A stretch of 63,939 nucleotides of DNA, the filler included, from Sanchytrium tribonematis (Eukaryota), in the NCBI GenBank assembly GCA_018985235.1. It is 21 parts of 21 records of this genome, joined end to end, with 100 filler letters (N's around TTAATTAATTAA, not from the genome) between each part and the next. Parts side by side here need not be neighbours in the genome. Positions count along the whole stretch, not along the records: positions 33,058 to 50,091 come from JADGIG010000126.1; 20 more parts are not named here. One strand, given 5' to 3'. How positions within the stretch are numbered: the stretch's first letter is position 1; each line of letters starts with the position of its first letter. Below the pieces are notes generated by a model, which was not told the origin of the DNA, ran no database searches, and worked only from the letters and a program-made list of their open reading frames with translations. The position numbers were made by a program, and so were the translations under genes. Below, piece after piece: positions 29,940 through 50,091 of the stretch.

Positions 29940-31365
29940 GCCAACCAATTTTCTATTGTGTATCAAAGGACATGCCCGTAAGGCAGTGCATTTAGCAGGA
30001 ATTTGGGAAAATTATACGGTTACTACACAGATTGAAGTAACTAATGAAGAAGGTGAAAAAGGTCTACAAGATCAAGTTCACACTTTCAAACGCGTCTCTT
30101 ATTCTCAAACCAAAGCAGCTCTTGTTGACAAATACTTGACAAAAAGTATGTATTTAGAGTTGTATCGACGTTGTTCAACTATGAGAATGAAGAATCAAAC
30201 TGTGAATAGTTATGAACAGTATGCATTTGAAATTTTTGAGGCATTGGACTCATTTGACAAGTTATTGAAACACAAAGAAGAATTGAAAAATGAGAATACA
30301 AAAAGAATCAGTGTAACTCAAGAGAGTTTACGCAATGCCTTTATCAATGGATTACCGGACTACATTAAGGACCAACTGATGTTAAATTTGCCACCCAAAT
30401 TTGAGGATATCATTTCCATGGCCCAGAAGATTCAAGACAATCTTGGTGACTCAAAAAATAAAGATCAACCAAAACAATACAATATGGAGAAACAAAACTT
30501 TAGAAAAACAAAAGAAAAAACAGAAAAACCAAAAGAAACCGATGAAGAACCAAAATGCTATTATTGCAAGAAGAAGGGACACCTGAAGAGAGACTGTCCA
30601 AAATTGATTAACAAAAACAAACAACACAACAAGAAAGAAGATCCAATGGAGATGGATTTGGTACAGTCCACTGTAAATAGCATTATTGCGCAAACAACTC
30701 GACCAAATTTATTAGTGAAAATCCAGGATCAAGAATTTAAGGCTTTATTAGACACAGGAAGCCCTGTATCTTTCATTTCCGGTACAAAAATATCTAAATT
30801 AAAAGATGTAGATATGAGTGACTGTACCAGACCATTCTTGGGTTTTGGTGGAAATGAAGTTTTAGTCAAACATGAATGTAAAATTAAAATGGAATTAACT
30901 GGTTTCAGTCCCACCTTGCATTCTACAAGGAAACTGTATGTGGCTGATAACATGAAAGTGGATCTATTATTAGGAACTGATTTTATGGAGAGTATGCAAA
31001 TCAATATTGATTTGGCAAATAAGGAAATCAAATATGCTGATTTCAGTTACAAGTATGGAACACCAACTCATCTGATTCCCTCTCTAGAAATGGACGATGA
31101 TGATGATAAATTACAGATTTTAAATGTGCAGGAGGAGACAAATTTAGAATCCGATTCTGATGGTGAAAATAAATTACCACCAGAACCAATTATTCCTGCC
31201 AGCCCTTGTTTTGATAAGAAACAATTACAAGCATTCAAGACAATGGTAACAGAGTACCAGAAATTTATCGAACGGAAACCAACATACATCAAGGATTACA
31301 TTTTTACAAATGAAGAAGAAGAAGAAGAAGAAGATTTATTAAAGGGATTCTCAATTAGTCAATGA
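29940..31365 (+). mobile_element. Ty3/Gypsy-type LTR retrotransposon gag-protease fragment
   Basis: AFINGLP, CCHC knuckle CYYCKKKGHLKRDC, DPMEMD, aspartic protease ALLDTGS and LLGTDF. It stops before the RT. Confidence 0.85.
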
Positions 31366-32957: not shown

Positions 32958-33189
32958 NNNNNNNNNNNNNNNNNNNNNNNNNNNNNNNNNNNNNNNNNNN
33001 NTTAATTAATTAANNNNNNNNNNNNNNNNNNNNNNNNNNNNNNNNNNNNNNNNNNNNTTGTAGGTACAGCTCAAAGATATGTGAACGACAATGGTAAAAC
33101 GAGGTTTCTTATCTGACGCTAATAAATTTATAATAATTCTGTTAAATTAGTTGAATTGCTGGATATAACGAGTTTATAGAATGCACTCA

Positions 33190-33506
33190 ATTTTCAGAAT
33201 CCAATGATTTCCAATTTCAAGGCATTTCACTCGTCATTTTACTCACAATTGGATTCTTTTGTGGTCAAGTATTTGGATTTATTGGTATTTCAAATGTTCC
33301 TGCTACGGTCACCACATTAATCAAAAATATGGATATTTGGAATTGTCATTTTTAAAGAATCTTTGCAATGGAATACAATTGCGGGATGTATTTTAGTATT
33401 TATTGTGACTATTTTATTAGTCATTGAGAACATTTATCAGACTAGAGTAGAAAATGAACGAGAAAGAGAAAATAGCAACAAAACAGTCTTGAATGAAACA
33501 TTTTGA
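33190..33506 (+). pseudogene. Frameshifted remnant of an EamA/DMT (SLC35G-like) transporter C-terminus
   Basis: Frame 1 reads ...GFFCGQVFGFIGISNVPATVTTLIKNMDI; frame 2 reads IFGIVIFKESLQWNTIAGCILVFIV... The joining segment is deleted and there are stops upstream. Confidence 0.5.
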
Positions 33507-33537
33507 ATAAATTTTTTTGAATCATTTATTTCTCAGG

Positions 33538-34380
33538 TTACCAAACACCACCATACTTCCAATTTCTTCTGTTCCAATTTCTTGGGTTTTGCCTCTCGTC
33601 TGCCAATTCTTTTTGTTGTTCCTCCATTTGCTCATTTTCATATCTTTCTTGCTCCAATAAATACATCTCAAAATCCTCATCAGGGTTTTTATCCCAATTG
33701 ATTCGATCCTTTAATGCTTGTGGGTAATTTGCAGTCACTTTCTCATTTCTAAATAATTTCACAAATCGATCATAATAGGGTGAAGATAATTCACCCAGTT
33801 GATTAGAATACACTACACCTATTTGGGGATTACCATATTTCTCAGATATCTCCAAAAATGCTTTTTTCTGTGCATTTCTATTCAATGGTCGATTCACAAA
33901 GAAATATACTGCAAAATCCAACATTAAGTCATGGATTTGGTCAGGATTGCTCTCGGATACTTTGTCATACAATTCATTCATCACATGATAAAAGCGAGGC
34001 TGGCTCAATTCTTCACCAAAATGAAAAATTGAAACAATCACAAGTTTGCAAACTTCATTCCATTTGTCTTTCCTTTCTTTAGCCCATTTTCCTGCATAAT
34101 AAAGAGCAAAAACAGGCCATGCGAGATCGAAATTGATAATCTCTTTTAAATCAAGAGAATTTTCAAAGAACCCAAAATACTTGACTTCAGATTCTTCTTC
34201 ACTCAATGGCTTTAAGTCATTTCTTTCAACCATTTTCAAATATGTTTTCTGTCTTTCTAAACTATCGCGTTGTCTTGCGGCCGCTTGTTGTCTATAGATG
34301 ACCTCTATTGCTTCAGCTTCAGCGACTGCCCTGGTGAGACCAGTATATATTCCAAATACACACAACAATGCAAACAACAT
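33538..34380 (-). CDS. Secreted helical family protein, divergent member E
   Basis: Signal MLFALLCVFG from ATG 34380. Shares the W..AL.Y, SQ..Y.VM..LY and DFA..F..RP motifs with genes B, C and D. Confidence 0.8.
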   Translation of the reverse strand: MLFALLCVFGIYTGLTRAVAEAEAIEVIYRQQAAARQRDSLERQKTYLKMVERNDLKPLSEEESEVKYFGFFENSLDLKEIINFDLAWPVFALYYAGKWAKERKDKWNEVCKLVIVSIFHFGEELSQPRFYHVMNELYDKVSESNPDQIHDLMLDFAVYFFVNRPLNRNAQKKAFLEISEKYGNPQIGVVYSNQLGELSSPYYDRFVKLFRNEKVTANYPQALKDRINWDKNPDEDFEMYLLEQERYENEQMEEQQKELADERQNPRNWNRRNWKYGGVW

Positions 34381-34623
34381 GGGGAGTGGGTTCCTGTTCG
34401 CTTTTTTATCAATTTGAAGTATCACGTGGTAGCACTATTTCAATCACGTGGGGGTATTTTACTACCCCTGGGTTAAACTGTCAAAATAGTCAAATGGACG
34501 CCCCAAAAGTGTCCCGAACGCATCAAAATCAACTATTTCACTAAATACTCTTCTTCAACCACTGGACCATCTCCAATTCACCCATTCTTGAATATAAGTA
34601 CATTTTTATTTATTAATTTGATT

Positions 34624-35580
34624 TTAGTTGAAATTCTTATTCAAGATAATCCATTCATGCGTAAGTGCTTCCCTTGCAGTCAATCTTAGATTTGGATCAG
34701 TGTGAGTTAATTTCTTTATAAAATCAATCATTTGTGGCTCAAATTCACTCAAATACGCTTCAAATAATGTTGTATCACTCGGAAATACTTTTAAACCCTT
34801 TCTATAACCATCCTTGTCATCATAAAACTTGACATTAGTAAATATCTCCAATACTGCCACCCCCAACATTGCACCTAATTGAAACATGTCTGCTTTTTTA
34901 GGATCATAAAAATCATTAGTCCACTGTCCATATTCATTTATCATTTGTGGTGGCATATAAACATATGTACCCATTGGAACATTTATAAAATCTGCTTCAC
35001 TATTTGATTCTCGCATGTGCTCTAAATCAGCTAATACATAATGACCCTCTTTTTCCAATATGTTTTCTGGTTTAATATCCAAATGTGCATATCCCTTAGA
35101 ATGAATAAAATCTAATCCGCTTAAAATTTGACGCATTACATTTTTCATTTTATCGATAAATTCTGACTTGTGACTATTGGCTTCAGATTTCATTTTTCTA
35201 AGATCGATTAAATAATTGGACAAATCAGTGTCATAAAAGGGCATTATGATTTGAAAACAATCTAAAGTATAAGACTTTCCATCAACTTGACGTTTGAATT
35301 GTTTTGAACCACCATCTTCACCTTTAATGACATTTGGATGATCGAATTGAGTCATCATTTTTATTTCTGATGCGATCCCACTTTTTAATTGACTACTAAA
35401 TTTAGTGGCGCAGAGAATTTTAACTGCCTCTACGACATTATTTGAATTCGTGTGTGAACATACTTGGGAAGTTCGGAGTTCAAATCGTCCAAATTTTCTG
35501 ACTTGTGATGCATCTTTGATCATTTTTAATTCTGACACTGAATATGTAAATTCGGCAAAAGAGAGTAAAGCAAAAATCAT
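34624..35580 (-). CDS. Atypical Ser/Thr protein kinase with signal-like N-terminus
   Basis: AVK, HPNVI, HLDIKPEN and D.F.LG are present. DFG is replaced by DLE, APE by PPQ, and there is no GxGxxG. N-terminus MIFALLSFA. Confidence 0.85.
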   Translation of the reverse strand: MIFALLSFAEFTYSVSELKMIKDASQVRKFGRFELRTSQVCSHTNSNNVVEAVKILCATKFSSQLKSGIASEIKMMTQFDHPNVIKGEDGGSKQFKRQVDGKSYTLDCFQIIMPFYDTDLSNYLIDLRKMKSEANSHKSEFIDKMKNVMRQILSGLDFIHSKGYAHLDIKPENILEKEGHYVLADLEHMRESNSEADFINVPMGTYVYMPPQMINEYGQWTNDFYDPKKADMFQLGAMLGVAVLEIFTNVKFYDDKDGYRKGLKVFPSDTTLFEAYLSEFEPQMIDFIKKLTHTDPNLRLTAREALTHEWIILNKNFN

Positions 35581-35744
35581 TTTTCAAGGAGTTTCAATTG
35601 ATTGATTTTGAGTGGCTCAAAAGTGACACAAGAAAAACATGTGATTGTGAAACAAATAGATTTTCAATCAACTTGCAATCATTTACATGTCATTTGATTG
35701 GCTTATATAATATTAAATTGTCAATTGTCTTTTCTTCAATTTTG

Positions 35745-36290
35745 ATGCCCCAAAATCAATCACATCATCATGTTTTTCAAGGTGCTCCACAAAATACATC
35801 ATATACCCTATCCCATACATTTTGTTCTCCAGAATATACCTTTCAATGCATCGAATTCCCCAAATTATCATTTATTTGGAACTCAAAAAAGCAGAAATTA
35901 TATTTAGAAAATGGTAAAGCCATATTATACAGTTATAGGCCAGTTTTATTATATCCATTTGGCATGTTAAAAATCAAGAATGCAGTGACTAGTGAGACTA
36001 TTTGTGAATTATCTTGTAGAGAAGGGATTTTATCAAGGAAATATTTGGCAGAATTTAAACAAGGTTCATATACAATTAAAAATTCAAGAACAGGAATGCA
36101 TATTTATGATGGGAATCCGAAAAAGGGTGGTATTGAAATTGCAACATTGGATGCTTATTGGCGAGGATCACCTAAAAAAATCACTTTTTTGAAACAAAAT
36201 GTGGATCCTGCCATGATAATTACAATTGCAGTATGTGTAGGTCGAATAGAAAGAAAGAAAAACAGTTCTTCTGGAGGGCAAACAAATTAA
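35745..36290 (+). CDS. LURP-one/Tubby-C-like family, copy 1
   Basis: Paralogue of copies 2-6 (VFQG.P, FCS, LSF.W, NVDPAM.ITIA). Fold inferred from the terminal VDPA-hydrophobic helix. Confidence 0.7.
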   Translation: MPQNQSHHHVFQGAPQNTSYTLSHTFCSPEYTFQCIEFPKLSFIWNSKKQKLYLENGKAILYSYRPVLLYPFGMLKIKNAVTSETICELSCREGILSRKYLAEFKQGSYTIKNSRTGMHIYDGNPKKGGIEIATLDAYWRGSPKKITFLKQNVDPAMIITIAVCVGRIERKKNSSSGGQTN

Positions 36291-36293
36291 TAA

Positions 36294-36316
36294 TTTACCA
36301 GTTCTGTAATTGGTCA
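36294..36316 (+). promoter_or_regulatory. Conserved upstream motif TTTACCAGTT(C/T)TGT(A/G)ATTGG; also at 36911, 37507, 38150 and 38720
   Basis: Occurs 58-68 nt upstream of the ATG of copies 2-6. The best copies contain an inverted CCAAT. Confidence 0.65.
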
Positions 36317-36353
36317 AAAAATTAATTAAATTCGTTACATCTCTTTTCCTTTC

Positions 36354-36869
36354 ATGTCCAACAATTCAGTCACTCCAAATTTGCACTATGTCTTTCAAGG
36401 ATCTAAAGAAGATACTACTTATACACTCAACTATACGTTCTGCTCAACAGAAGTAGCACTCAATTGCAATGAACATCCCAATTTATCATTTAAATGGCAT
36501 GGCTACAAATCCAATCTTATATTAGACGATGGCAGAATACTGTTACACGCAAAGGCGGGTTTTTTAAAATATAAAGTCGTAAATGTGCTGACAAATGAAG
36601 AATATTGTGAAATTGCACCAAGAAGAGCAGGATTGAAACAAAAATATGAGGCTAAATTCTCTGATCATATGTATTCAATTGAAATTCGAGATAGATATTT
36701 AAGAATATATTATGGGAATCGAAAAGAAGATGGATTAGAGGTATTACATTTAAAATTGGGATTTCGAGGTCCTAAATTATTATATATTAAAAAGAATGTA
36801 GATCCCGCTATGATGATTACAATTGCACTGACTGTACACAAGATATTTCAGGCACAACATTCAAATTGA
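36354..36869 (+). CDS. LURP-one/Tubby-C-like family, copy 2
   Basis: YVFQG, LSFKW, EEYCEI and KKNVDPAMMITIA. Confidence 0.75.
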   Translation: MSNNSVTPNLHYVFQGSKEDTTYTLNYTFCSTEVALNCNEHPNLSFKWHGYKSNLILDDGRILLHAKAGFLKYKVVNVLTNEEYCEIAPRRAGLKQKYEAKFSDHMYSIEIRDRYLRIYYGNRKEDGLEVLHLKLGFRGPKLLYIKKNVDPAMMITIALTVHKIFQAQHSN

Positions 36870-36969
36870 TTTTACTAATAAATTTGCCATTTGGGCAATC
36901 AAATTAAAAATTTACCAGTTTTGTAATTGGTCAGAATATTAATTAAATCACAAGATTTTCTTTCCTTTC

Positions 36970-37473
36970 ATGTCTGACAATTCTATCACTCCAAACATAC
37001 AATATGTCTTTCAAGGATCCCCAAAAGATACCACTTATACAATCAATTCCTCATTCTGGTCCACTAAATATGTACTAAAGTGCAATGAATATCAAAATTT
37101 ATCATTTCTATGGCATGGACGCAAAACGCAACTCATTTTAGACGATGGCAGAATATTATTACACTCCATAAAGACGGGGTTTAGACAATATAAAGTGATA
37201 AATATGTTGACCAATGAAGAATATTGTGAAATCGCAATCAAAAAGAAAGTATACAGGGGAGAATATGAGGCTAAATTTACTGATCATATGTACTCTATTC
37301 AAATTATTAAAAATTACTTGACAATTTACAAAGAAGGAATTGAAGTGGCAAATTGGGATATGGGGTTTCGAGTTCCTTGGGTTCTGAAAATCAAGAAGAA
37401 TGTGGATCCAGCCATGGTTATTACAATTACAATGACTGTGATAATCATATATCGTCAACAAACATCTCTTTAA
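36970..37473 (+). CDS. LURP-one/Tubby-C-like family, copy 3
   Basis: Closest to copy 2; KKNVDPAMVITIT. Confidence 0.75.
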   Translation: MSDNSITPNIQYVFQGSPKDTTYTINSSFWSTKYVLKCNEYQNLSFLWHGRKTQLILDDGRILLHSIKTGFRQYKVINMLTNEEYCEIAIKKKVYRGEYEAKFTDHMYSIQIIKNYLTIYKEGIEVANWDMGFRVPWVLKIKKNVDPAMVITITMTVIIIYRQQTSL

Positions 37474-37574
37474 TATTTGCAACATCTGTGCAAGTATTTG
37501 AAAGGATTTACCAGTTTGTTGATTGGACAAATAAATCAAAAATCAATTAAATGAATCATCTCACTTTGAAATGG

Positions 37575-38104
37575 ATGTCTTCTGATACAAATATCCACTA
37601 TGTCTTTCAAGGTGCCCCTCAAGATACCACATTCATCTTCAAATATTCATTTTGTTCCCCAGAACTCAAAATACTTTGCAATGAATTTCCCAATTTGTCA
37701 TTTAAATGGAACACACTCCGCACTGCCCTCATTTTAAATGATGACAGAACCTTGTTATTTGCTCGTCGTTTGTCCATGTTCTCATATAAAATGAAAATTC
37801 GAAATATGTTGACGAGTGAAGATTTTTGCGAAATTGCCCTTGTAACGCAGGATTTACACACAAATATTTGGCCACTTTTAGTAATCATTTTTACACCATA
37901 CAGATGCGGGATAGACGAATCATCGTATATTATGGGAATCCAAAGCAGGGTGGATATCAAGTGGCTCTTTTAGATCTTAGTTTATTTGGAAGGGCAAAAC
38001 TACTTAAAATTAAAAAGAATGTAGATCCTGCCATGATGATTACAATTGCAATGACTGTACTCAATATTTATGGACGCCAAGTAGCCTCGACTTCTAATTT
38101 TTAA
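37575..38104 (+). pseudogene. LURP-one/Tubby-C-like family, copy 4 (1-nt frameshift at ~37838)
   Basis: The N-half is in ORF 37551 and the C-half in ORF 37826. Adding one C to GCCCT restores EIAPCNAG, matching paralogue EIAPRRAG. Confidence 0.7.
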
Positions 38105-38208
38105 ATAGAATCATCTGATATAATTAATTTATGCAATCAAATGAAAGCGTTTACCCGTTCTGTGATTTGTTAATAAATTGAACAAATTTACAACTTTCCC
38201 CATCCAAC

Positions 38209-38700
38209 ATGACCATTCTCAAATCTGATGTCACATTTACAATGACTCATACAATCTGTAGTCCAGAAACCCTATTTTTTTGCAATGAAACCCCTCATCT
38301 ATCATTTTCATGGAATTTACGCAAAACAGCCCTCTTTTCAGAAACTGGTGAAATGCTCTACAAAGCTACATGTCCCTCTATGCGCTCTTATAAAATGGTA
38401 GTCAGTAATATGATTACGAACCAGTCTATCTGTAATGTCAATGTGCAAGTCAACGGATTTAGCATCGGATCACGTAAATATGTGGCCACATTTGATCATC
38501 ATGTTTATGCCATCCAATTTGTCAAAAGACATTTAAAAATATACAGTGGTGAATCTTTAGATAAATCAGAAATAGCCGATTTAAAATTAAATTGGATGGG
38601 TATTGCAAAATCATTTAAAATTAAGAAAAATGAGGATCCTGCTTTGATGATTACATTAATATCCTGTGCTTTACGAATATTTGCAAGACAATCTAGTTAA
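38209..38700 (+). CDS. LURP-one/Tubby-C-like family, copy 5
   Basis: ICSPE, LSFSW and KIKKNEDPALMITL. Confidence 0.75.
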   Translation: MTILKSDVTFTMTHTICSPETLFFCNETPHLSFSWNLRKTALFSETGEMLYKATCPSMRSYKMVVSNMITNQSICNVNVQVNGFSIGSRKYVATFDHHVYAIQFVKRHLKIYSGESLDKSEIADLKLNWMGIAKSFKIKKNEDPALMITLISCALRIFARQSS

Positions 38701-38777
38701 TCAATCTATTTGCAATCCTTTTACCAGTTCTGTGATTCGTTGACTCGTAATAAAATCTTGCCATTTCTCCCCTTGTC

Positions 38778-39296
38778 ATGTCCACTCCAAATTGCAATAT
38801 CTCCTATATCTTCCCAGGTGCGCCCATATTCACAACATATCAAGTCACCATCAACTACGCATTCTGTTCAGGATCCACGACATTCAAATGCAATGATACA
38901 GATTCCAAATTCGAATGGAATGATTATAAACACAAATTAATTGTAAGTGACTCTACCGTATTAAAATCCAAATTCAATAATATCCTTTCACGCACCATAA
39001 CACTCAAAAATGCATCCAAGCAATTCATTTGTGAGATATTTCCACGATATGCTGGATTAAAACACAAATATATTGCCCAATTTCAACATCACTTTTATTC
39101 TATTGATTATTCTACCCGACACATGATCATTTATTATGGGAATCCCAAACAAGGTGGATTTGAAGTGGCTACTTTTGATGTAAAATTGCGAGGTGGTGAT
39201 AAAACATTTAGAGTGATTCAAAATGTGGATCCTGGGATGATGATTGCTATTGCCATGAGTGTATTGAGGATTAGAAGTAGACAGCAGGCTAATTAA
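38778..39296 (+). CDS. LURP-one/Tubby-C-like family, copy 6
   Basis: IFPGAP, FCS, YYGNPKQGG and NVDPGMMIAIA. Confidence 0.75.
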   Translation: MSTPNCNISYIFPGAPIFTTYQVTINYAFCSGSTTFKCNDTDSKFEWNDYKHKLIVSDSTVLKSKFNNILSRTITLKNASKQFICEIFPRYAGLKHKYIAQFQHHFYSIDYSTRHMIIYYGNPKQGGFEVATFDVKLRGGDKTFRVIQNVDPGMMIAIAMSVLRIRSRQQAN

Positions 39297-39329
39297 GAAA
39301 CATAAAATAAAAATTAAACGTTTATTATA

Positions 39330-39629
39330 TTATTTGGACTCGCGATTACGACCATAGCAATCTGGGTCTACGTAGCATTCTCCCCATTGTTGCGAAATTT
39401 CCTTACCCTTATATGGGATTTTTTTACAATTTCTACAGTCTGGTGTTTTGATTCCTTCGAGGAAAGTAGGCTTATCTAGCGCACTTCCAGGGAGAGTAGA
39501 ATCAGCTTCAGAATCTTTAACATTCAATGGTTCTGCATCTGAATCAATTCCACGATCTGTTGGATCAGTGCGAAGGTCCTCTGTTTGAATGGTAGGCAAT
39601 CCAAATACTCCAAAGAATGCGATCAACAT
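39330..39629 (-). CDS. Small secreted Cys-containing protein (cassette gene A)
   Basis: Signal MLIAFFGVFG, an acidic region and four Cys (CRNC...C....C). The mature part is unlike the neighbouring family. Confidence 0.7.
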   Translation of the reverse strand: MLIAFFGVFGLPTIQTEDLRTDPTDRGIDSDAEPLNVKDSEADSTLPGSALDKPTFLEGIKTPDCRNCKKIPYKGKEISQQWGECYVDPDCYGRNRESK

Positions 39630-39862
39630 GGGGAAGTAATATCATCTCTCTTAAGTAGCAATTTGGGGAATCATGTGGTCGTACATTGCACTCCTGAATA
39701 GCAATTGAGGTATTTGATTGGCTATCTTATATTGAAACAATGTGATCTGTGCGTATCGATTTTTCGATTTGTGGGGTATCGCACATGTTGGGTACAATGG
39801 AAATCATATTGTGATTCAAAAATCTAATAGTCATTTATGTTCAGAAAACACCATTGTCTACA
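39598..39862 (-). repeat. Promoter/5'UTR/signal-peptide cassette, copy A
   Basis: High nucleotide identity to 41634-41899, 43223-43418 and 44129-44330. Confidence 0.93.
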
Positions 39863-40097
39863 GATCACTGAGAGTCCCACATCTCATTATTTCTTCATGA
39901 ATCCCATTCCAACATCCAATTTATCTGATTTTATCACATTCACAGTTTACCGTAAAAGATTGCGAGTGCATTTATTTGCAATGAAGATCCAAATCGTCAT
40001 TTATTTACAAATTGTCCAGAAGGTCAGTATCCCAATGAATGCGCAGGCTCTGGCTAAAATTCACTATGTCACTTTAAAAATTAAAATCAATATTGAT

Positions 40098-40665
40098 TTA
40101 TTCGCGGATTGCCTTTTGAGTTAAATATGGAGATGAAGACTATTCTGTAGAATGAAATGCTTTTATTTCTGCAGTATTGAAATAGTAGCAAATTTGTCCT
40201 ATAACGGATTTGAGGCCGGATCGAGGATCCTGTCAGAAACATTATATTCACTCATTCTGGAAAGTTCATTAACGGTATTAATTGTTCTTCATAAGATTGA
40301 GGTCTATCAACGAAAAAGATACTTGCAAAATCCTTTAATAACGATCTGATTTGAATTGGAAAATTACCAAACGCATACATGATACTAGCACAGATTCTGG
40401 GATCCTTTGCATACATTGAACAGTAATATAATGCATTCACAGCCCATCGCAAATTTTAAGTCAAAAGTAGAGTTTTTAAGTGATTTCTCGTAGTACTTTT
40501 TCATCGATTGCAATTCAACTTTTGTTTCATCACCAGTGGCAATGTGGAAAAGGATCTTGCTACTCTGCATCTTCCCATTGAGAATTTGATCGGGCAAACC
40601 GTTCTTCACTAGGATGCACTATATCATTAGCAGTACCTTCAAAATTTTCTTCCGCTGTATTTTTG
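40098..40665 (-). pseudogene. Decayed copy of gene D (43459-44160) lacking the 5' cassette
   Basis: Colinear DNA similarity (WAVNALYYCS.YA.DPRICASI, SLLKDFA..F.V.RPQSYEEQ) with internal deletions and frameshifts. Confidence 0.88.
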
Positions 40666-40771
40666 AGCGTATTAATGATTAAAACTGGACAACAACCTAA
40701 TATATATCTAATGACTCAACAAAGTAGGATTCATTAAAATAAATTTATTCAGCTTCTTTCTCCAGTTGCTC

Positions 40772-41665
40772 TCATTTGACAACTTGAAATTCAAAATTTT
40801 GTAATTCTTCAGGCATCCATGTTTTCACTGATTCACTCTTATAAAAATCAATAAATTTGTCCTCTATTGGATAAGCCCTATAATGTTGACTCAATTGATC
40901 AATCATAAATCTCAAATCCACATTGTAGTGCTTTGCAATGCACTCAATCACATGAATTTGATACAATTCAGATCGGGGTCTAACTGCATAAAACCATTTA
41001 GCCATATTCTTTAAAAATGCAGATAGTTGTCCATTAATCAAGGTTTTGTAGACAGTGTACATGACCTCGTGATAAATCTTGTCTTGCGGTGAATCAGTTC
41101 CAAGAGTTTTAAAAGATTGAAACAGAGTTTTGCAAATACTATCCAAATTTCCCGTTTCCAGCCATTCTTTAGCGATAAATGGATTATTCTCAATTTTAAA
41201 ATCAATCCATTCTGCTAAATAAAACAATGAATTAATTGTCCATGCAGGGTCTATTCTCAGTATATTGTTTTGAAACATTTCAAGATCAGAGTCAAATAAT
41301 TCAAAATATTTCATATGAATAACTTCATTTGAGTAGCGCTTCACACTGTATCTCATGCTTAATAATTTATGAGCATTTTCAAGATTGGTCAATGAACCTA
41401 CTTTCAATAATGGTTTTTCTGCTACAAATGTTTGTGAATTCACCCAATCATCTTGAACATCCTGATCATATTGAGTGCTGGCGTAAAATTCAATGACTTT
41501 GAACTTTGAGACAGGTTCATATTTAGTTTTATAGTGAGAATTAGCTGGGTTTACTTCGCCAAACCACGGCGGAACCTTGAGAGATGAATCCATTGTAGGC
41601 CAACCGTTATCACCTTCCTCAGCTCTTTTAAGTAATCCAAATACTCCAAAGAATGCGATCAACAT
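40772..41665 (-). CDS. Secreted helical family protein B
   Basis: MLIAFFGVFG-LLKR-AEE. Family motifs PAWTINSLFY, PQDKIYHEVM and AKWFYAVRP. Confidence 0.85.
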   Translation of the reverse strand: MLIAFFGVFGLLKRAEEGDNGWPTMDSSLKVPPWFGEVNPANSHYKTKYEPVSKFKVIEFYASTQYDQDVQDDWVNSQTFVAEKPLLKVGSLTNLENAHKLLSMRYSVKRYSNEVIHMKYFELFDSDLEMFQNNILRIDPAWTINSLFYLAEWIDFKIENNPFIAKEWLETGNLDSICKTLFQSFKTLGTDSPQDKIYHEVMYTVYKTLINGQLSAFLKNMAKWFYAVRPRSELYQIHVIECIAKHYNVDLRFMIDQLSQHYRAYPIEDKFIDFYKSESVKTWMPEELQNFEFQVVK

Positions 41666-41899
41666 GGGGGAGTAACGTCATCTCGCTTAAATACAATTTG
41701 GGGGATCATGTGGTCGTACAATTACTCTCCTATTTAGCAATTAAGCAAGATGATTGGCTATCTTATATTGAAACATTGTGATCTGTGCGTATCTATTTTT
41801 CGATTTGTGGGGTATCGCACATGTTGATCACAATGGAAATCATATTGTGATTCAAAAATCAAATAGTCATTCATGTTCAGAAAACACAATCTATCTACA
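41634..41899 (-). repeat. Promoter/5'UTR/signal-peptide cassette, copy B
   Basis: See copy A. Contains the most perfect hairpin (41774-41835). Confidence 0.93.
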
Positions 41900-42219
41900 A
41901 CTTGTCCAAAAAAAGTACCCCAAAATGGTAATAGATTATAAGCACCATTCTACTTTCGTATTAATAAAGTATCCATTTAAGACTCAAAATTCAAAAGATG
42001 CGTAATCATCAATGTGGGTCTCAAATTGGCAGATTTGAAATCTAATTTCTAAAGAGTGGCTTTAAGAATTGAAAATGAAATCGAATTCGGATGTTGCAAT
42101 TGTGAATTGTTGACAAGGAATACGCAGGCATTGATTAATATTTGCTATTTTACTTTGATTTGAATAAATATCCACCATGTTGAAACAATTGACATTTCAT
42201 GTAATCACCCGTTTAATAC

Positions 42220-43254
42220 TTAATCATTTATTTCATAAACTGGATCCACAGGTCCGGTGTAAGCAGGAGGATCAATATTCGTTGTCAATGCGTGTCCTCC
42301 TAGTGTGGCGAAATACTTTTGAAATTTGTCTTCGAATTGAGAATTTAGCTCTTTAACAATAAAATTTTCAATTTGATTTTTTGGAACAATTAATTTTCCA
42401 ATTTGATATTCTGGGGCATTCAAATAATCAAATTTTAATTCAAATTTCTCTTCTAGAAATCCCTGTAATTCGTCTCTATTTTTCTCATATGCTAATGAAA
42501 ATGCCTTGCTATTCATCTTTTGTAAATAGGCCTCACGCAATTTCATAATTGCTTTAATTCCAATAGATTTAGCTGTATTTAAATTATTAACATATTTCAA
42601 AGTTAGTTGTGTGATGACTTTTTCTTGCTCTGCCAAATTTTTAGGTCTATTCTTGACGAAATTATCATTAAAGCTCATTAACAAGTCTGAAAGGACTTCA
42701 GGTCTATTCTCGATTACATAATTATATAAATCAACCATCACATCCAAATAAACACCATATTGAGAGAAACCATCCCCTAATGAATTCAAAGCATCAAAAT
42801 AAGCATACATGATTTTGCCTAGAGTGCCATATTCTGCCCATACTGTAAGATCCACTTTCTCCCCGTCATCTGTTACTCTTTTAATTAAGAACATTCTCAA
42901 ATAATATGGCAAATTTAATACCCATCCAGGATTCTTTTTTGAGATCTCAGCCATTGGAAACTTGGCTTCTTGAAATGCATTATTATACATCTGAGTTCTA
43001 GAATTGTGATTTACCTTGTAATTATGATTCTTTGCCCTTTTCAATAAACTTTTAAGTTTTTCTTCGGCTACTTTCGAATCCACAATGTTTGCACTTGGAT
43101 CAAAGACTCTGTTTTTGGTGCCAAACCAATTTGATTTATACTGATTTGAAGGAAGTACATTGCTAATGAAATGACTCGGTGGTTCAATTGTGCCATCAAC
43201 TTTTGCCTTAGTACTTTTAGGCAATCCAAATACTGCTAGTAATGCGATCAACAT
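42220..43254 (-). CDS. Secreted helical family protein C
   Basis: ATG 43254, MLIALLAVFG. Family motifs PGWVLNLPYY, SQYGVYLDVM and NFVKNRP. Confidence 0.85.
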   Translation of the reverse strand: MLIALLAVFGLPKSTKAKVDGTIEPPSHFISNVLPSNQYKSNWFGTKNRVFDPSANIVDSKVAEEKLKSLLKRAKNHNYKVNHNSRTQMYNNAFQEAKFPMAEISKKNPGWVLNLPYYLRMFLIKRVTDDGEKVDLTVWAEYGTLGKIMYAYFDALNSLGDGFSQYGVYLDVMVDLYNYVIENRPEVLSDLLMSFNDNFVKNRPKNLAEQEKVITQLTLKYVNNLNTAKSIGIKAIMKLREAYLQKMNSKAFSLAYEKNRDELQGFLEEKFELKFDYLNAPEYQIGKLIVPKNQIENFIVKELNSQFEDKFQKYFATLGGHALTTNIDPPAYTGPVDPVYEIND

Positions 43255-43418
43255 GGGAAGTACTGTCATCTCTCTTACGTAGCAATTTGGGGGATCATGT
43301 GGTCGTACAATTACTCTCCTGAATAGCAATTAAGCCAGATGATTGGCTATTTTATATTGAAACAGTCTGATCTGTGCGTATCTATTTTTCGATTTGTGGG
43401 GTATCGCACATGTTGATC
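43223..43418 (-). repeat. Promoter/5'UTR/signal-peptide cassette, copy C
   Basis: See copy A. Similarity ends within the right hairpin arm (GATC). Confidence 0.93.
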
Positions 43419-43458
43419 TTTGAATAAACAATCAGTCAATATTAAAATTAATATTAAT

Positions 43459-44160
43459 TTATTCGCTGATTGCCTCTTGAGTCAATTTTGGAGGATAGTA
43501 TGCTCTTACTTCAGCAGTATTGAAATACTGAGTTGCAAATTTGTCCTTGAAATCGGGGTTGAGACCATTGAGGATCCTCTCAGAAATTGTATATTCATTC
43601 ATTCTGGCAAGTTTATCAATGGCATTAATTTGTTCTTCATAAGATTGAGGTCTTTCTACGAAAAAGACCCTTGCAAAATCCTTTAATAATGATTTGATTT
43701 GAATTGGAAGATTTCGAAAATGTTCAAACATCTCTATCATTACTTTAAAATAAACTTCATTTTGAGTAAATTCGGCATCAAATCTACCAAACGCATACAC
43801 GATACTAGCACAGATTCTGGGATCCCTTGCATAAATTGAACAGTAATATAATGCATTTACAGCCCATGCTTTATCGTTTTGCATCGCAAATTCTAAGTTG
43901 AAAGTAGAAATTTCAAATGATTTCTTGTAGTACTTTTTCATCGATTCAAAATTTGTTAGATCACGTGTGGCCATGTTGAACAGCATCTTACTGTTTTCAT
44001 CCTTTTCTTTAGAGAAACTTTTATCTGCATCTTCCCATTGCGAATTTGATGGTGCTAACCATCCTTCTCTAGGATGCACTAATTCATCAGTTGTACCTGG
44101 AAACTTTTCTTCCTCGGCTCTTTTAAACAATCCAAATACTGCTAGTAATGCGATCAACAT
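43459..44160 (-). CDS. Secreted helical family protein D
   Basis: MLIALLAVFG-LFKR-AEEE. Family motifs KAWAVNALYY, TQNEVYFKVM and DFARVFFVERP. Confidence 0.85.
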   Translation of the reverse strand: MLIALLAVFGLFKRAEEEKFPGTTDELVHPREGWLAPSNSQWEDADKSFSKEKDENSKMLFNMATRDLTNFESMKKYYKKSFEISTFNLEFAMQNDKAWAVNALYYCSIYARDPRICASIVYAFGRFDAEFTQNEVYFKVMIEMFEHFRNLPIQIKSLLKDFARVFFVERPQSYEEQINAIDKLARMNEYTISERILNGLNPDFKDKFATQYFNTAEVRAYYPPKLTQEAISE

Positions 44161-44330
44161 GGGGAAGTAACGTCATCTCGCTTAAATACAAATTTGGGGG
44201 GTCATGTGGTCATACAATTACTCTCCTATTTCGCAATTAAGCAAGATGATTGGCTATTTTATATTGAAACAATGTGATCTGTGCGTATCTATTTTTCGAT
44301 TTGTGGGGTATCGCACATGTTGATCACAAT
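44129..44330 (-). repeat. Promoter/5'UTR/signal-peptide cassette, copy D
   Basis: See copy A. Similarity ends at GATCACAAT, the right hairpin arm. Confidence 0.93.
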
Positions 44331-44366
44331 ATCCACTGTCATTTTCAATCAATTTGCAATCATTTA

Positions 44367-45260
44367 TTAAAGACTAGACACAATTTGATCCCCAACGAGT
44401 GAAAATGTGTAATATCCGGGTGATTGATTACTAAATCCAATTCCAGTGCCATAAATCACAAATTGATCAAATCGATACTCAAAATCCTTTGTTTTTGACC
44501 ATTGGATGGGTTGGTTTTGATAAATAGTGTGTGGGAACCCATTAGATTCGAATCCAGCAGCCATAATAATCACATCAGATGCTACAAATTGGAAATCAGT
44601 CAATTTGGTGTATTTGTGAATAATGGTGAACGAAATACACATGGCTTTACGTAGATTTCTTTGGATCCATTCTGATGTGGCACCATCACCAACAATGTAC
44701 ATACGATGGCATAATTGAAGATTTTCAACTAATTTTGGATAATTTAATGCTTCGTACATATTTAAGACGGTTGCATTGCCAATGCGTGCTTTTAATTCAT
44801 TTGAGATGGGTCTGGGATGTCCACCACTTGCCATGAATACCTTGCTGCATTTATATTTATGATTTAAGATATATTGGTCTTTTTTGATGATTTGCATTTC
44901 TGAAATGTGTGCTTTTATTTTTGAGAATTTACGGGATTTGGACATGTAATCATGCATTTCCAATGTCATATTGACTAAATGACCTAGTGATGGTAACCCA
45001 TAGTCATTCATGATGCGATCATACGCATGAATCATATTTGGCTTTAATTTCAATTTTTGACCGTATAATCCATAATAATAATTGGCTGCATTGCTGCTAT
45101 ACGATTTGAATTTGGATATTTCACCACCTTGAAATTTAGAATCAAATAAATACATGCTGGATTTTGGATATTTTTGAGTCAATTGCCACGCCAAAGTCGT
45201 CCCAGATGGACCAGCACCAACAACGCATAATGTAGATGTGATAACAGCAATCAACAACAT
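44367..45260 (-). CDS. FAD/NAD-binding oxidoreductase-like protein
   Basis: VVGAGPSG Rossmann motif, MASGGHP and a second IVGDGAT motif. Confidence 0.75.
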   Translation of the reverse strand: MLLIAVITSTLCVVGAGPSGTTLAWQLTQKYPKSSMYLFDSKFQGGEISKFKSYSSNAANYYYGLYGQKLKLKPNMIHAYDRIMNDYGLPSLGHLVNMTLEMHDYMSKSRKFSKIKAHISEMQIIKKDQYILNHKYKCSKVFMASGGHPRPISNELKARIGNATVLNMYEALNYPKLVENLQLCHRMYIVGDGATSEWIQRNLRKAMCISFTIIHKYTKLTDFQFVASDVIIMAAGFESNGFPHTIYQNQPIQWSKTKDFEYRFDQFVIYGTGIGFSNQSPGYYTFSLVGDQIVSSL

Positions 45261-45374
45261 TTAATCAATTAGCAGATTAACAACATTCTTATTAAATAGA
45301 AGTATATGTCGTCATTTTAAAGCCACAAAATGCCATGGCGTCATTTTTGGCAATTGTTAAATTTTGCCATTTAT

Positions 45375-46046
45375 TTATTTAAAAATGGGCTGTCTACACA
45401 TGGGACATGAATAATCACCGTCACGAGTCAAACACCATTCTTTTAAACATGCTTTATGGAATTCATGCTTGCAATTTGTCCGTATAGCGACAGATTCATC
45501 ACCCCACTCATAATTTTCAAAACAAATGCAACATGGTTCTTTCATTGCCAGTATCTCATAATCATGTCCAATAGTAAAATATCCGTCTATATCTGATGAT
45601 TCATCTACCATTTGCCAATAATCTACAATTGGGTATGAAATTATAATACTATCCAAATCTAAAGATGCTTCACTTTGATTTTTAGAGGCGTAATAGCGAG
45701 TCATCAAGTAAATCGCACATAGTATGAAATTTAACGAGAATACACTACCAATAATGATGATGACAAGTGGATTGTAGACATAACAGGACCAAGTTACAAT
45801 CAAACCCAATAAATTCAAAAACATGAAAATATGACATTTCTTGTATTTGTGCCATGCTCTACTCAATTCATACAAATCTACTTCTTCAGCAAATATTCGA
45901 AAGTAGTAAATAAACAAAAACCATGCGAAAAAGGACCCCATTCCAATGCCCATAAACATTAATGTCGTATACGCTGTTGCCGTATAGCTTAATACTGTCA
46001 ATATTATAATAAATATCAATCCCACGATATTGCGAACAGATAGCAT
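45375..46046 (-). CDS. Membrane-anchored RING-H2 E3 ligase
   Basis: Four TMs, then CCICFE...CKHEFHKACL.EW...CPMCR. Confidence 0.88.
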   Translation of the reverse strand: MLSVRNIVGLIFIIILTVLSYTATAYTTLMFMGIGMGSFFAWFLFIYYFRIFAEEVDLYELSRAWHKYKKCHIFMFLNLLGLIVTWSCYVYNPLVIIIIGSVFSLNFILCAIYLMTRYYASKNQSEASLDLDSIIISYPIVDYWQMVDESSDIDGYFTIGHDYEILAMKEPCCICFENYEWGDESVAIRTNCKHEFHKACLKEWCLTRDGDYSCPMCRQPIFK

Positions 46047-46269
46047 GCACTAGATTGGAGCAGTGATGGCTTATTTAATCAAATATTGACCAATTGGAAA
46101 ATATCCAATCGGAATAAAGTTTGCAACATGCGCATCTCCCTGAAAAATCAGATGGTATCTGCATTCTCTAGAGTATTCTTTAAATGCAATAATGGATATT
46201 GGTATGCAAGATGCAATATTCTGAATTATTTTGAATATCATTCATAAATTGATTTACTTTGTCAAAGAA

Positions 46270-46545
46270 ATGCCAAAGTCTCGACCATCTGGCAGACCCA
46301 AAAAAATTCATGAAAAAGAAATTGAATCAGACCAGCTCAAGAAGCTGAGAGAAATTACAACCAAATCCACTTCTTTAGTTGAAAAAGGTTCACAGCTCGC
46401 AACAGAAAATATAGATGAATTTAAAGAACCAGTAACTAGAAAGAATGTACCCAAAGTGACTAGAAAAGCTGGTGAGAAACTTGTAAAGCCTTTACAAGTT
46501 AGTAAAGGAAGGCGCATCCTCAATTCATATTCAAAATATTACTAA
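46270..46545 (+). CDS. Small basic protein with AT-hook-like GRPKK
   Basis: MPKSRPSGRPKK; otherwise unrecognised. Confidence 0.4.
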   Translation: MPKSRPSGRPKKIHEKEIESDQLKKLREITTKSTSLVEKGSQLATENIDEFKEPVTRKNVPKVTRKAGEKLVKPLQVSKGRRILNSYSKYY

Positions 46546-46681
46546 TTTGGTCAAAGACAAAAACGATTAAATAAAATTAGTAAAGCAATCGTCTTCATGA
46601 GCAACTTCTGACGTCTCCCAATCATTTTTTTGACGACACGACGCCCCTCATATATAATCTATCCCTCATCAATCACTTTGA

Positions 46682-46939
46682 ATGAGAGATTTGTGTCATT
46701 TATATCTGTTTGATAGTGAATACGAAAATGAGACTATAATACGATTGGTAGATGAAGAAGCAAGTCGCATTGAAATGAGAATTAAAAAGCGCAATGAAAG
46801 GAAAAAAAGAAGAAGGAAAATTTGGGATGAAAAGATGAAAGAGAATTGTATCCAAACATTAAAAAAAGCTGCCAATTTAAGACGAAAAAACGAAATTAAA
46901 TTAGCAAGACTCTTTAAATTGTTGGAAAAATACAAATAA
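46682..46939 (+). CDS. Small basic coiled-coil protein
   Basis: 85-aa K/R/E-rich ORF ending in AAATAAA. Confidence 0.45.
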   Translation: MRDLCHLYLFDSEYENETIIRLVDEEASRIEMRIKKRNERKKRRRKIWDEKMKENCIQTLKKAANLRRKNEIKLARLFKLLEKYK

Positions 46940-46941
46940 AT

Positions 46942-47277
46942 TTACTCTATACCACTTACAATCTCTACAATATCGTCATTTCTGTTTAGAACTGCATTTT
47001 CAGAATATTCATTTCGAGATTCTTCAAGAAATGCATTTAATGGAATGGGTGTTTCTGATCTTCTCATTCGATGTCGTAGCAAATTAATATTACGCTGCTT
47101 ATCCATATCTGCTTTGTGGTTAAAATATACACACAGTGCACCAAATGAGACACATCCACTCGCAATCATAATGGTCAATAATGGATTTCTGTAGATTTGT
47201 GACCAAATTAATGTGAATATCGTCATGGAAATCAGTAGAATTACTAATCTGACTTGTTTGGCACTAGGCAATTTCAT
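46942..47277 (-). CDS. Small two-TM membrane protein
   Basis: Two hydrophobic segments and a polar tail. Confidence 0.55.
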   Translation of the reverse strand: MKLPSAKQVRLVILLISMTIFTLIWSQIYRNPLLTIMIASGCVSFGALCVYFNHKADMDKQRNINLLRHRMRRSETPIPLNAFLEESRNEYSENAVLNRNDDIVEIVSGIE

Positions 47278-47364
47278 CCTATCTCAATTGCAACCAAGAT
47301 TAAAATGGAACATAAAATCAAGTTGAGCCAATCAAAGTGACCCAATCAAATTTGTATTAATTTA

Positions 47365-47754
47365 CTAGGTATATAGCTTATAAATCACAGCAGATGCAAA
47401 TAATACAAATGCAGGTACCCAAATCTTTAATGGATTCATGACTGGTGCTTCTAATTTAGGCTCTGTTTTATATAATTCTTTTGTAGGGCTTTTCGCATCT
47501 CTCAAATCCATCATTGAATCCACTTTTTGAAATTTAATATAATTGTTGTAAACACCATTCTCTAATTTCATCGGATATGACTCACTGCATTTCCATTCTC
47601 CATCTACAACAAATTTAAATTCAAAATCTTCCCCATCAATTTCGATCTCAAATATCATTTCATTTTGATTCATTTTTAGTCCTTCTTTCCAATTATTAAA
47701 TGATCCAAATATCTCTACTTGATCAGCCTTGGATTCATATGTAATACGGACCAT
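47365..47754 (-). CDS. AMPK-beta-type glycogen-binding (CBM48-like) domain with C-terminal TM
   Basis: V.IFGSFNNW...FKFVVDGEW...GVYNN.I and a tail anchor IWVPAFVLFASAVIY. Confidence 0.8.
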   Translation of the reverse strand: MVRITYESKADQVEIFGSFNNWKEGLKMNQNEMIFEIEIDGEDFEFKFVVDGEWKCSESYPMKLENGVYNNYIKFQKVDSMMDLRDAKSPTKELYKTEPKLEAPVMNPLKIWVPAFVLFASAVIYKLYT

Positions 47755-47835
47755 ATCAAATCTCAAAACAATTGAAAATGGCACTTTGAAAAGTGTTTCC
47801 GCCAATCATATCTTGAAACAAATCACCTATATTTA

Positions 47836-49080
47836 TTAATCTTCAAATTTTGGAGTTTCAGCTTGCTTCTTAGCGGTTGTCTTCAAGTTCCTACCATTTC
47901 CTGTCACTTGAATATGTTCTATTTCTTCTGTTTGTGCGTTATATCTTTCTATATTTCGACAAATGATTGTTTCTGTCCATTGATAATATCCGCCACCATA
48001 GCCAGGTCCATAGCCAGGATATGGGTAACCAGGATAGTATCCCGGATAGCCAGGGTAATAGCCAGGGTAGCCAGGTGCATAATATCCAGTATGCGTTACC
48101 TCATATTTCAATAATCGACTTAAAGCTAGTTCCGTCTGCTGATCAGAACCCACTTTTAGCAATTTGATCTTATTTTCTTGAGAAGGCTCAACATTCAACT
48201 GTAAGTCATATCCCTCAGGATTATCGTGTTTTACGACTTGAGCATAAAGATTGAATGATCTCCCGATTTCAACTGGATCTCCGTTGTTGATACTGAATGC
48301 CTGCCAATTGGTGTTGTAACGGCTTCCTTGACATTCAATTGTTAATGGAATATCAGGTAGCTGGTCACCAGGTCTATAGCGAGTGCAATAAAATTGGCGA
48401 TTAGGATATTCAATCATGGCGAAATCAAATTGCCATTTGCCCCAAACATATTCGCCATACGCGACTTCTTTTGTTTCTTCTTCACCCACTTGGATCCCCA
48501 CTTGGATTCCCAATCTAAGTCCATTTTGAACATATTTTAGAGTTCTTTTGCCTTCATTGAAATCAATCACTTTGTCTTCGTTTAATTGCAATGAAATGGG
48601 AGCCTTGATAGATCTGATACCATTTTTGACTCTATCAATACATGTGAATTGTCTTTCAGGAACATCATAAGTTTTTTTAATGCGATCACCACTGCCACAT
48701 AATATTTGAAAAGTTTCTCTGTTTGTAGAATCTGTTGTAAAAACAAAGTCTTCTTTCAATGAAAATTGAATGCCATTGTTTCCGACATCAGTCTGAGTCA
48801 ACTTGTATGAAAAAGTACCCAAATTCGTCCATCCTCTTGACGTATACACTTTTAAAACTGGTGTTTTTTTAACAGATTTAATAGCAAATCTGATTTTCAA
48901 TTCCCATTTTTGTCTTTTCAATTTGAATACGCTATCTTTGCCATCTATAAATGGTTGAATAATAGTATATTCATTCTCATTATTAAGTGATTTGACATTA
49001 CACGTCGTTTCAAAGCTTCCAACTGGATATGCGCCACAAATGCCTCCTGAACAAACAGCCAATACAAGTGAATAAAACAT
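47836..49080 (-). CDS. Secreted protein with Gly/Tyr/Pro repeat insert
   Basis: Signal MFYSLVLA and GY(Y)P repeats at about 47985-48085. Paralogue of 49219-50091. Confidence 0.8.
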   Translation of the reverse strand: MFYSLVLAVCSGGICGAYPVGSFETTCNVKSLNNENEYTIIQPFIDGKDSVFKLKRQKWELKIRFAIKSVKKTPVLKVYTSRGWTNLGTFSYKLTQTDVGNNGIQFSLKEDFVFTTDSTNRETFQILCGSGDRIKKTYDVPERQFTCIDRVKNGIRSIKAPISLQLNEDKVIDFNEGKRTLKYVQNGLRLGIQVGIQVGEEETKEVAYGEYVWGKWQFDFAMIEYPNRQFYCTRYRPGDQLPDIPLTIECQGSRYNTNWQAFSINNGDPVEIGRSFNLYAQVVKHDNPEGYDLQLNVEPSQENKIKLLKVGSDQQTELALSRLLKYEVTHTGYYAPGYPGYYPGYPGYYPGYPYPGYGPGYGGGYYQWTETIICRNIERYNAQTEEIEHIQVTGNGRNLKTTAKKQAETPKFED

Positions 49081-49218
49081 GATGTATTTAGATAGTTTGG
49101 TTTATAAATGATAAAATGATGCCATGGATGATGAATTTCAAGTCACGATGCGTTGAAAATGATGGTTTCATGTCGCAATATGGCAAAATGATGATGTCAT
49201 GTTAACTTGATCATTTAT

Positions 49219-50091
49219 TTAGATATTTTTACAAATCAATTGATACATGGGATGGGTTTTTGGTGTATATCTCAGTGTTTCATATAAAACCAATTTGTTA
49301 TCCACAACTTCAAGTGGATATTGGTTCTCATAATATGGTTCATCTAATAGTTGCAATGCGTACATCCCATTCATTTTGGTCACTCTTGCATATATTTCAA
49401 TAAATCCCTCTAAATTCACCACATTTCCATGATGAATTTTGAATTTCCTGTAAATTGGATGTAAATTATTGTGACATTCAATATTTAATGGCAAATCTGG
49501 CAATTCATCACCAGATGTGTATTTCTCACATGTCAATTGACCATCGCCATAATCAAGTGTGGCAATTTCAAATTGCCAATGATTCCATATCAATTTGCCA
49601 TATTGGATCGTCTTGACGCCATTTGCGCCCAATTCTAATCCCAATTCATTCCCATTTCTCACATATTTAATGGTTTTAATCCCACTTTTGAATTCAATTG
49701 ATGCTTCATTTTCAAGCGTGATAGGTGCTTTAATTTCACGCAATCCATTATTTAGTTTATCAAAACATGTCAACATTTGTGATTCTGGAATTGGATATTC
49801 TTTAGATAACTCACTACCACATTTAATCGTATATTTCCCACTTAAATAATTCCCATCCATGGCAATTGTATCAAAATCCAACGAATCCCTAATAAATCGA
49901 ATGTCTTTACCATTTCCCTCTTTTTTCAATTCAAATACTCCATTCCCCAATTGCTGACTTCCAATCCATGCAGATATCTTTAAAAATGGCAATTTCTTGC
50001 AATATTTTAATCCAAATTTGATATTTAATGGATACTCATCTAAATAAGAATCTATTTTAATTAAATCATCTTTTCCATTTATATTTGGGTG
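49219..50091 (-). CDS. Paralogue of the 47836 protein, 5'-partial
   Basis: Shares I.CGS, TC.D...NG.R.IKAPI.L, YG...W..WQF and GD.LPD.PL.IEC. Open to the contig end. Confidence 0.8.
   Translation of the reverse strand, partial: HPNINGKDDLIKIDSYLDEYPLNIKFGLKYCKKLPFLKISAWIGSQQLGNGVFELKKEGNGKDIRFIRDSLDFDTIAMDGNYLSGKYTIKCGSELSKEYPIPESQMLTCFDKLNNGLREIKAPITLENEASIEFKSGIKTIKYVRNGNELGLELGANGVKTIQYGKLIWNHWQFEIATLDYGDGQLTCEKYTSGDELPDLPLNIECHNNLHPIYRKFKIHHGNVVNLEGFIEIYARVTKMNGMYALQLLDEPYYENQYPLEVVDNKLVLYETLRYTPKTHPMYQLICKNI

Follow-up and report, generated by a model that had tools for sequence, protein, structure and literature searches.

Tandem gene families in which a conserved 5' part precedes strongly diverged products have been described from several organisms, the closest to the locus reported here being the SSSGP genes of the Hessian fly. 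These are tandem genes with a conserved promoter and 5' untranslated region (5'UTR), a conserved signal-peptide region and a highly diverged mature region (PMC2955719). As far as the available part of that source goes, their 3'UTRs and introns are also conserved, a dN/dS above 1 and expression have been demonstrated, and short conversion tracts starting from the flanks together with functional constraint are proposed by its authors as explanation. The present analysis concerns a stretch of 63,939 nucleotides (nt) from the genome of Sanchytrium tribonematis (assembly GCA_018985235.1), in the following termed the window, in which four tandem minus-strand genes (A to D) share a block, here termed the head, that covers the ATG and its surroundings between about -165 and +33. 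Like the SSSGP genes, they form a tandem cluster with a conserved 5' head and a diverged mature region (21–26 % amino acid identity, synonymous saturation). Unlike in SSSGP, only the 5' side is shared, the open reading frames (ORFs) are uninterrupted, those of B and its relatives C, D and E are larger (233–344 amino acids, aa), one body is foreign to the family and the organism is a fungus; sequence homology between the array and SSSGP was not detected. The parallel with Hessian fly effector genes had already been drawn by the initial annotation and fits the SSSGP clusters well, while its suggestion of an undescribed system has to be given up, since both the pattern and its explanation by gene conversion have been published for these genes (PMC2955719, in the part available).

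Sanchytrids are parasites of algae with genomes of 10.5–11.2 Mb and about 35 % GC, according to the accessible part of their genome report (10.1101/2020.11.19.389700). The window consists of parts joined via N spacers, and the array resides in an N-flanked contig of 17,034 nt (33058–50091) with a GC content of 33.5 %, the long contigs of the window ranging from 33.5 to 35.8 %. Genes in the window are of eukaryotic type, mostly uninterrupted and tightly packed with short spacers, and the assembly is fragmented. For TYW1, encoded on another contig of the window, the closest named match is from Paraphysoderma sedebokerense (59 %), and three further relatives reach 67–70 %. In a tree of this gene, calculated with 18 selected sequences out of at least 120 hits, it clusters with these three (100/100), whereas support for the position of the cluster is low (72/72). 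The TYW1 match agrees with a fungus of sanchytrid type, as do compaction and GC content.

Searching the contig against the window with BLASTN revealed the head in four copies, all on the minus strand (A, 39597–39790; B, 41633–41829; C, 43218–43418; D, 44128–44330). All six pairs align over 199–267 nt with 85.2–93.7 % identity (E 1e-60 to 1e-95), the alignments beginning at 39593–39598, 41614–41634, 43206–43218 and 44109–44128, which confirms the recurrent block of high identity noted at the outset. A core of 24 nt occurs four times without mismatch, and no match to it was obtained in any of 100 shuffles. The 162 nt preceding the ATG are 86–96 % identical among A–D, compared to a background of 49 ± 4 % (maximum 64; 300 random pairs), and the first 33 coding nt are 85–100 % identical. 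Identity drops away after about +33, and the 50 nt past the stop codons display 38–58 %, i.e. background level, a conserved 3'UTR thus not being found. The limits initially given for this cassette hold at the 3' edge, where identity collapses after about 11 codons, and need correction elsewhere: the start common to all four copies lies at about -165, A and B share some 75 nt more (39791–39862 and 41830–41899, minus strand; delimited by BLASTN and alignment), and about six additional codons (KRAEE) downstream of the head are common to B and D only. The inversion of the usual pattern, with conserved non-coding and variable coding DNA, was correctly recognized (86–96 % upstream versus 21–26 % for the bodies).

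The spacers in front of C and D consist almost entirely of the head, which starts about 40 nt past the stop of D in the case of C, and about 37 nt past the stop of the upstream oxidoreductase-like gene in the case of D; the head therefore likely contains the entire promoter. It likely comprises promoter, 5'UTR and export signal, the latter in copy A being represented by 11 codons. The motifs CATGTG/CACATG and GCCAATC, present in the head (including copy D), are taken here to be E-box and CCAAT sites, respectively. Beyond the leader, no hydrophobic segment was found in the array proteins, and similarly short hydrophobic starts are present on other ORFs of the window, e.g., a PhoD phosphatase. 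B and D carry KR at residues 13–14, which may represent a kexin cleavage site; it is not there in A, C and E. An RNA gene was considered for the head and rejected, as neither an Rfam match at E ≤ 1 (contig) nor a tRNA (window) was obtained. DNA folding of head D yielded a z of -2.2, owed to a hairpin strong in B and D only. An imperfect inverted repeat of 28–33 nt is located in heads B and D (41678–41753 and 44173–44249; -13 to -89), is weaker in C and broken in A; the same region of A and C contains a direct repeat of 16–18 nt instead. No match to the head cassette was found among metagenome contigs, and scans of metagenome and viral contigs for loci of this kind were negative as well, the metagenome scan relying on the signal-peptide pattern only.

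In the bodies, an old family is combined with a single exception. Genes B (40772–41665, ATG at 41665; 297 aa), C (42220–43254; 344 aa counted from the head ATG, with an in-frame ATG 15 nt upstream at 43269) and D (43459–44160; 233 aa) are full-length homologs (22–26 % identity, tblastn E 6e-8 to 4e-14). Together with gene E (33538–34380; 280 aa), an older paralog outside the array and likewise on the minus strand, they form a family homologous over most of its length (21–26 %, E 6e-8 to 7e-15) with W, Y, Q-x-Y, VM and F-x-x-x-RP as common positions. BLAST identities are reported because values from global alignment are inflated by gaps, to the extent that the unrelated A scores 24–29 %. Gene A (39330–39629, minus strand, ATG at 39629; 99 aa) joins the head to a body with an acidic stretch followed by four cysteines, and shares no similarity with B–E beyond the head. 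It looks like a real gene, because its codon usage stands out (z 3.98), its frame is open by chance in only 0.27 % of shuffles and AATAAA follows within 10 nt of the stop. The statement that the mature proteins can hardly be aligned accordingly applies to A and not to B, C and D, and the original list of four members lacked gene E as well as a headless pseudogene, here termed D-prime.

Relatives of these proteins were sought by several routes. None of A–E matched Pfam at the curated cut-off; a profile search with B–E returned only the window's own proteins (2 of 4,581 candidates of lengths 128–602), the homolog search with A only its own protein (1 of 1 candidate), and against PDB sequences the best E of the array proteins was 0.37. 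All ten proteins looked up are singleton clusters, and the ESM Atlas gave no usable match for D or A, a result that shows neither novelty nor absence. Predicted models reached a pLDDT of 59 for D (core 70–85) and 51 for B, and suggest at moderate to low confidence that the B–E proteins are helical bundles, predicted in D for about residues 95–225. With Foldseek, neither PDB nor viral models yielded a match at E ≤ 0.001, and the best VIA hits (Z 6.1, root-mean-square deviation 2.8 with 77 aligned; Z 5.7, deviation 5.1 with 139 aligned) are generic helical bundles.

The two parts of these genes differ in apparent age. In the bodies, 140 of 287 degenerate codons for the same residue are identical, with 131.9 expected from codon usage alone, which indicates synonymous saturation, whereas in heads A–D identical codons are used at 45 of 48 same-residue positions (16.6 expected). 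The bodies are therefore old, and the heads are either young or constrained at the nucleotide level. Groupings within the head core are incompatible with each other, seven sites supporting AC|BD, five AB|CD and none AD|BC. D-prime (40077–40664, minus strand), a frameshifted D pseudogene situated between A and B, matches D from +37, i.e. from the end of the head, identity being 86 % (483 of 562 aligned nt). The approximately 110 nt preceding the match contain no remnant of a head, as their local score of 16 compares to a mean of 19 in shuffles. Gene E shares only the proximal ~60 nt and the signal, at 72 %; its diverged head (34348–34439, minus strand; 72 % to B over 93 nt) has two CACGTG sites at about -70 and -48 from the ATG. 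An adjacent array of six paralogous genes served as control: its members are closer in protein sequence (26–62 % identity), yet less alike upstream (45–83 % over 60 nt), and the 200-nt head is therefore exceptional.

Further combinations of head and body occur in run X1, the only run that contains the array stretch, available as contigs and possibly itself the source of the assembly. Variant contigs, pieces matching the window and substitution ratios refer to 40 of 162 matches, namely those listed, and records were paired between two listings by length and depth, presumably correctly. In a record of 726 nt, a start of B/D type is followed by a body resembling that of C (73 differences in 468 nt), and in one of 316 nt a D-like start precedes a B-like body. 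As the depth sums suggest (72.3 = 48.1 + 24.2), the latter appears to have the letter of the A/C type at -20 and would then represent a third combination. In a D-like record, the leader appears to be further diverged, and in a record with a depth of 10.9 a start of B/D type is fused to the flank of the A position. Between B and B-like contigs, the proportions of differing non-synonymous and synonymous sites are 0.10 (pN) and 0.12 (pS), respectively, with 27 differences and no stop codon, which suggests fast protein change and is not proof of positive selection. Over 39200–44600, the variant contigs have depths of 11–28, compared to 32–50, and are about 10–16 % different from B and C. Should these contigs be alleles, the locus would be extremely polymorphic.

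These observations are probably best explained by ectopic recombination restricted to the 5' part which, together with selection, homogenizes the head while an old and likely secreted family of bodies diverges. Recombination would start in the head because it is the only long homology remaining between the paralogs; conversion tracts or unequal crossovers initiated there would stop where the bodies become too different, at about codon 12, and selection for a common programme of expression and secretion would maintain the outcome. On rare occasions, resolution at the 3' edge of the head could join it to another body, as in A, or strip a body of its head, as in D-prime. The head has likely recruited a foreign ORF once, in the form of A. 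The initial idea that a fixed head is homogenized or shuffled onto new payloads thus finds support in the mosaic heads, D-prime and the X1 variants, and requires restriction in that three of the four bodies belong to one old family; as only A is foreign, new payloads apply to one gene in four.

Several findings weigh against this interpretation. The test for clustering of the mosaic sites is weak if confined to the core that aligns well (p 0.075; 4 runs among 12 sites) and reaches p 0.005 only upon inclusion of the poorly aligned flanks, and neighbouring sites may represent single events. At head residues shared with the array, E has identical codons in 5 of 5 cases (compared to A and B) and 5 of 7 (compared to C and D); nucleotide-level selection or older conversion is therefore also acting. 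Selection is thus effective besides the proposed recombination. The dN/dS estimated from the 27 differences in B amounts to about 0.8, i.e. is not above 1. The leader, recognized by hydropathy only, is short (11 residues) and lacks a basic n-region. Finally, none of the X1 contigs listed spans the array, and X1 may be where the assembly came from.

Purifying selection alone, according to which the head is a dense regulatory element plus signal that has been maintained since ancient duplications, with no exchange in recent times, is the rival that survives best, though we regard it as unlikely. The head represents nearly all of the non-coding DNA on offer, and E retains its proximal part as well as most head codons. 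Moreover, sites of the type CAC[AG]TG/CATGTG are enriched upstream of other ORFs with hydrophobic starts (5 of 9, versus 4 of 46 others; 60 ORFs of the window, p 0.003), a count with a threshold chosen post hoc and with A–D, E and one head-overlapping ORF dropped; a secretome regulon is a possible reading of it. The adjacent six-gene array also keeps a short upstream motif, which in five of its members resembles TTTACCAGTTCTG. Selection alone would nevertheless have to preserve about 90 % identity over 200 nt during saturation of synonymous sites in the bodies, a degree of conservation not attained upstream of the neighbouring genes despite their closer proteins. Incompatible groupings, the foreign body of A and the headless D-prime are left unexplained by it, and the X1 contigs suggest that the same body occurs with different head types.

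Insertion of a miniature inverted-repeat transposable element (MITE) or another short mobile element in front of ORFs, which would provide them with promoter and start codon, is improbable. In B, C and D, a perfect inverted repeat of 10 nt does connect the ATG with the 5' end of the head; in head D (44146–44331), its arms can be extended to 16 nt at 88 % (44146–44161 at the ATG and 44316–44331 at the 5' edge). The repeat is flanked on both sides by ATT in B and D, not in C, and one X1 contig has the distal half alone, fused to other sequence (loose end 44249). The copies, however, remain homologous for some 22 nt past the right arm, including the signal codons; E possesses no left arm but most of the right one, and in A the repeat is broken (left arm; 7 nt). 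Repeats of equal length occur in 5 of 136 genomic tiles, and each of the four window copies is followed by an open frame. Of the 81,121 X1 contigs, only 19 fall on the head block, and the summed depth at its distal end amounts to 316 compared to 32–50 for unique contigs; depth is not a copy number, but these values speak for few head copies rather than hundreds.

An artefact of assembly or amplification, by which one head would have been placed onto several bodies through misassembly or chimera formation, appears more improbable still. The setting would allow for it: the assembly is fragmented, the array is bridged by no listed contig of a run that may be its own source, and sanchytrid genomes were produced with whole-genome amplification according to the part of the genome report at hand (10.1101/2020.11.19.389700). 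The four heads, however, differ by 6–15 % and each possesses private sites, and are therefore not explained by collapse. Seven of the listed X1 pieces match the window with 0 differences at depths of 32–50, those of A, C and D running into the head, and in the additional contigs differences from the window are spread over the entire length, which is not the picture given by chimeras. Misassembly and a MITE had both been named beforehand as the outcomes that could overturn the cassette, and both are disfavoured, the former by the private head sites and the latter by the open frames following each copy. Least probable of all is a switch of the Pneumocystis msg-I type, in which one active expression site swaps silent bodies at a fixed junction: the abrupt transition at codon 12, accompanied in B and D by KR, as well as the headless body and the depth-10.9 contig would suit it, but msg-I has a single-copy promoter (PMC10622565, available part) whereas here four full heads stand on four intact ORFs instead of one promoter serving promoterless silent genes, and D-prime is frameshifted rather than a silent intact copy.

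The proposed recombination, restricted to the 5' part and combined with selection, has parallels in other families, each of which is known here from parts of the cited source. In the lpl genes of Staphylococcus aureus (PMC2568036), a conserved block within each tandem paralog likewise serves as a recombination site that reshuffles variable parts; these genes differ in being bacterial, in the central position of the block within the ORF, between 5' and 3' variable regions, and in their study across many genomes. A recombination hub of this kind would give incongruent histories on the two sides of the block among strains, and the mosaic sites of the array, seen in one assembly and one run, point in this direction. 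Pneumocystis msg-I with UCS/CRJE (PMC10622565) is a fungal case that also combines a constant leader with variable bodies, joined close to a kexin KR site, and differs from the small family described here by its single-copy promoter and about 80 genes, one of which is expressed per cell. Similarly, CRN effectors (PMC3726527) diversify as a secreted family behind a conserved N-terminus by duplication and recombination of fragments. There, the conserved part consists of FLAK, a protein motif following the signal peptide, whereas that of the array is mostly non-coding; FLAK is not present in the N-termini of the array proteins, which also match no Pfam family at the curated cut-off. A further fungal parallel is AvrPm17 of powdery mildew (PMC9335242), the effector paralogs of which form a lineage-specific cluster and undergo recurrent gene conversion, except that mature proteins are kept identical there, while the conversion proposed for the array spares the body. 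Literature searches, a limited test, returned no fungal report of the 5'-only pattern.

The remainder of the contig and its surroundings contain further genes. Directly upstream of head D, an FAD/NAD-binding oxidoreductase-like ORF is encoded on the minus strand (44367–45260), the hydrophobic start of which overlaps the dinucleotide-binding motif and the Pfam matches of which remain below cut-off. The six-gene array used as control (35745–39296, plus strand) encodes paralogs of about 165–180 aa without Pfam match at cut-off, one of which (37551) is apparently frameshifted. A protein kinase with a short hydrophobic leader (34627–35580, minus strand) is possibly secreted and has CACATG and GCCAATC upstream; 26 nt upstream of it (35660–35685) are nearly identical to 44341–44366 just upstream of head D. 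Two related unannotated genes of 414 and 213 aa (47836–49860, minus strand) contain a common 50-nt repeat, the larger one in addition a hydrophobic leader and a GYYPGY-rich stretch. Elsewhere in the window, a Gag-protease ORF (30148–31365, plus strand) with zinc knuckle and aspartyl protease belongs to a fragment of a Ty3-like long terminal repeat retrotransposon.

With respect to function, the chances are about even that the array encodes co-expressed, effector-like secreted proteins acting at the host interface; they may otherwise be surface or wall proteins. A more far-reaching proposal, at present doubtful, is that the head represents a portable module for launching effectors, with codon 12 as preferred edge, that passes between paralogs as well as between haplotypes and adds non-homologous or newborn ORFs, A for instance, to a regulon of host-directed secretion. 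If true, a mechanism of gene birth would be active within one population of an algal-parasitic fungal lineage, and effector studies for a lineage of this sanchytrid type were not found in literature searches. As insects and bacteria already provide examples of the process, the advance lies in the lineage and in the 5'-only form rather than in the principle. The array constitutes a compact fungal case of a family with conserved heads and variable bodies, in which the mosaicism of the heads, the body lacking a head and the body of foreign origin are direct signs of exchange. For a poorly studied and likely alga-parasitic lineage, the 200-nt head offers a candidate minimal promoter as well as a probe for candidate host-directed genes.

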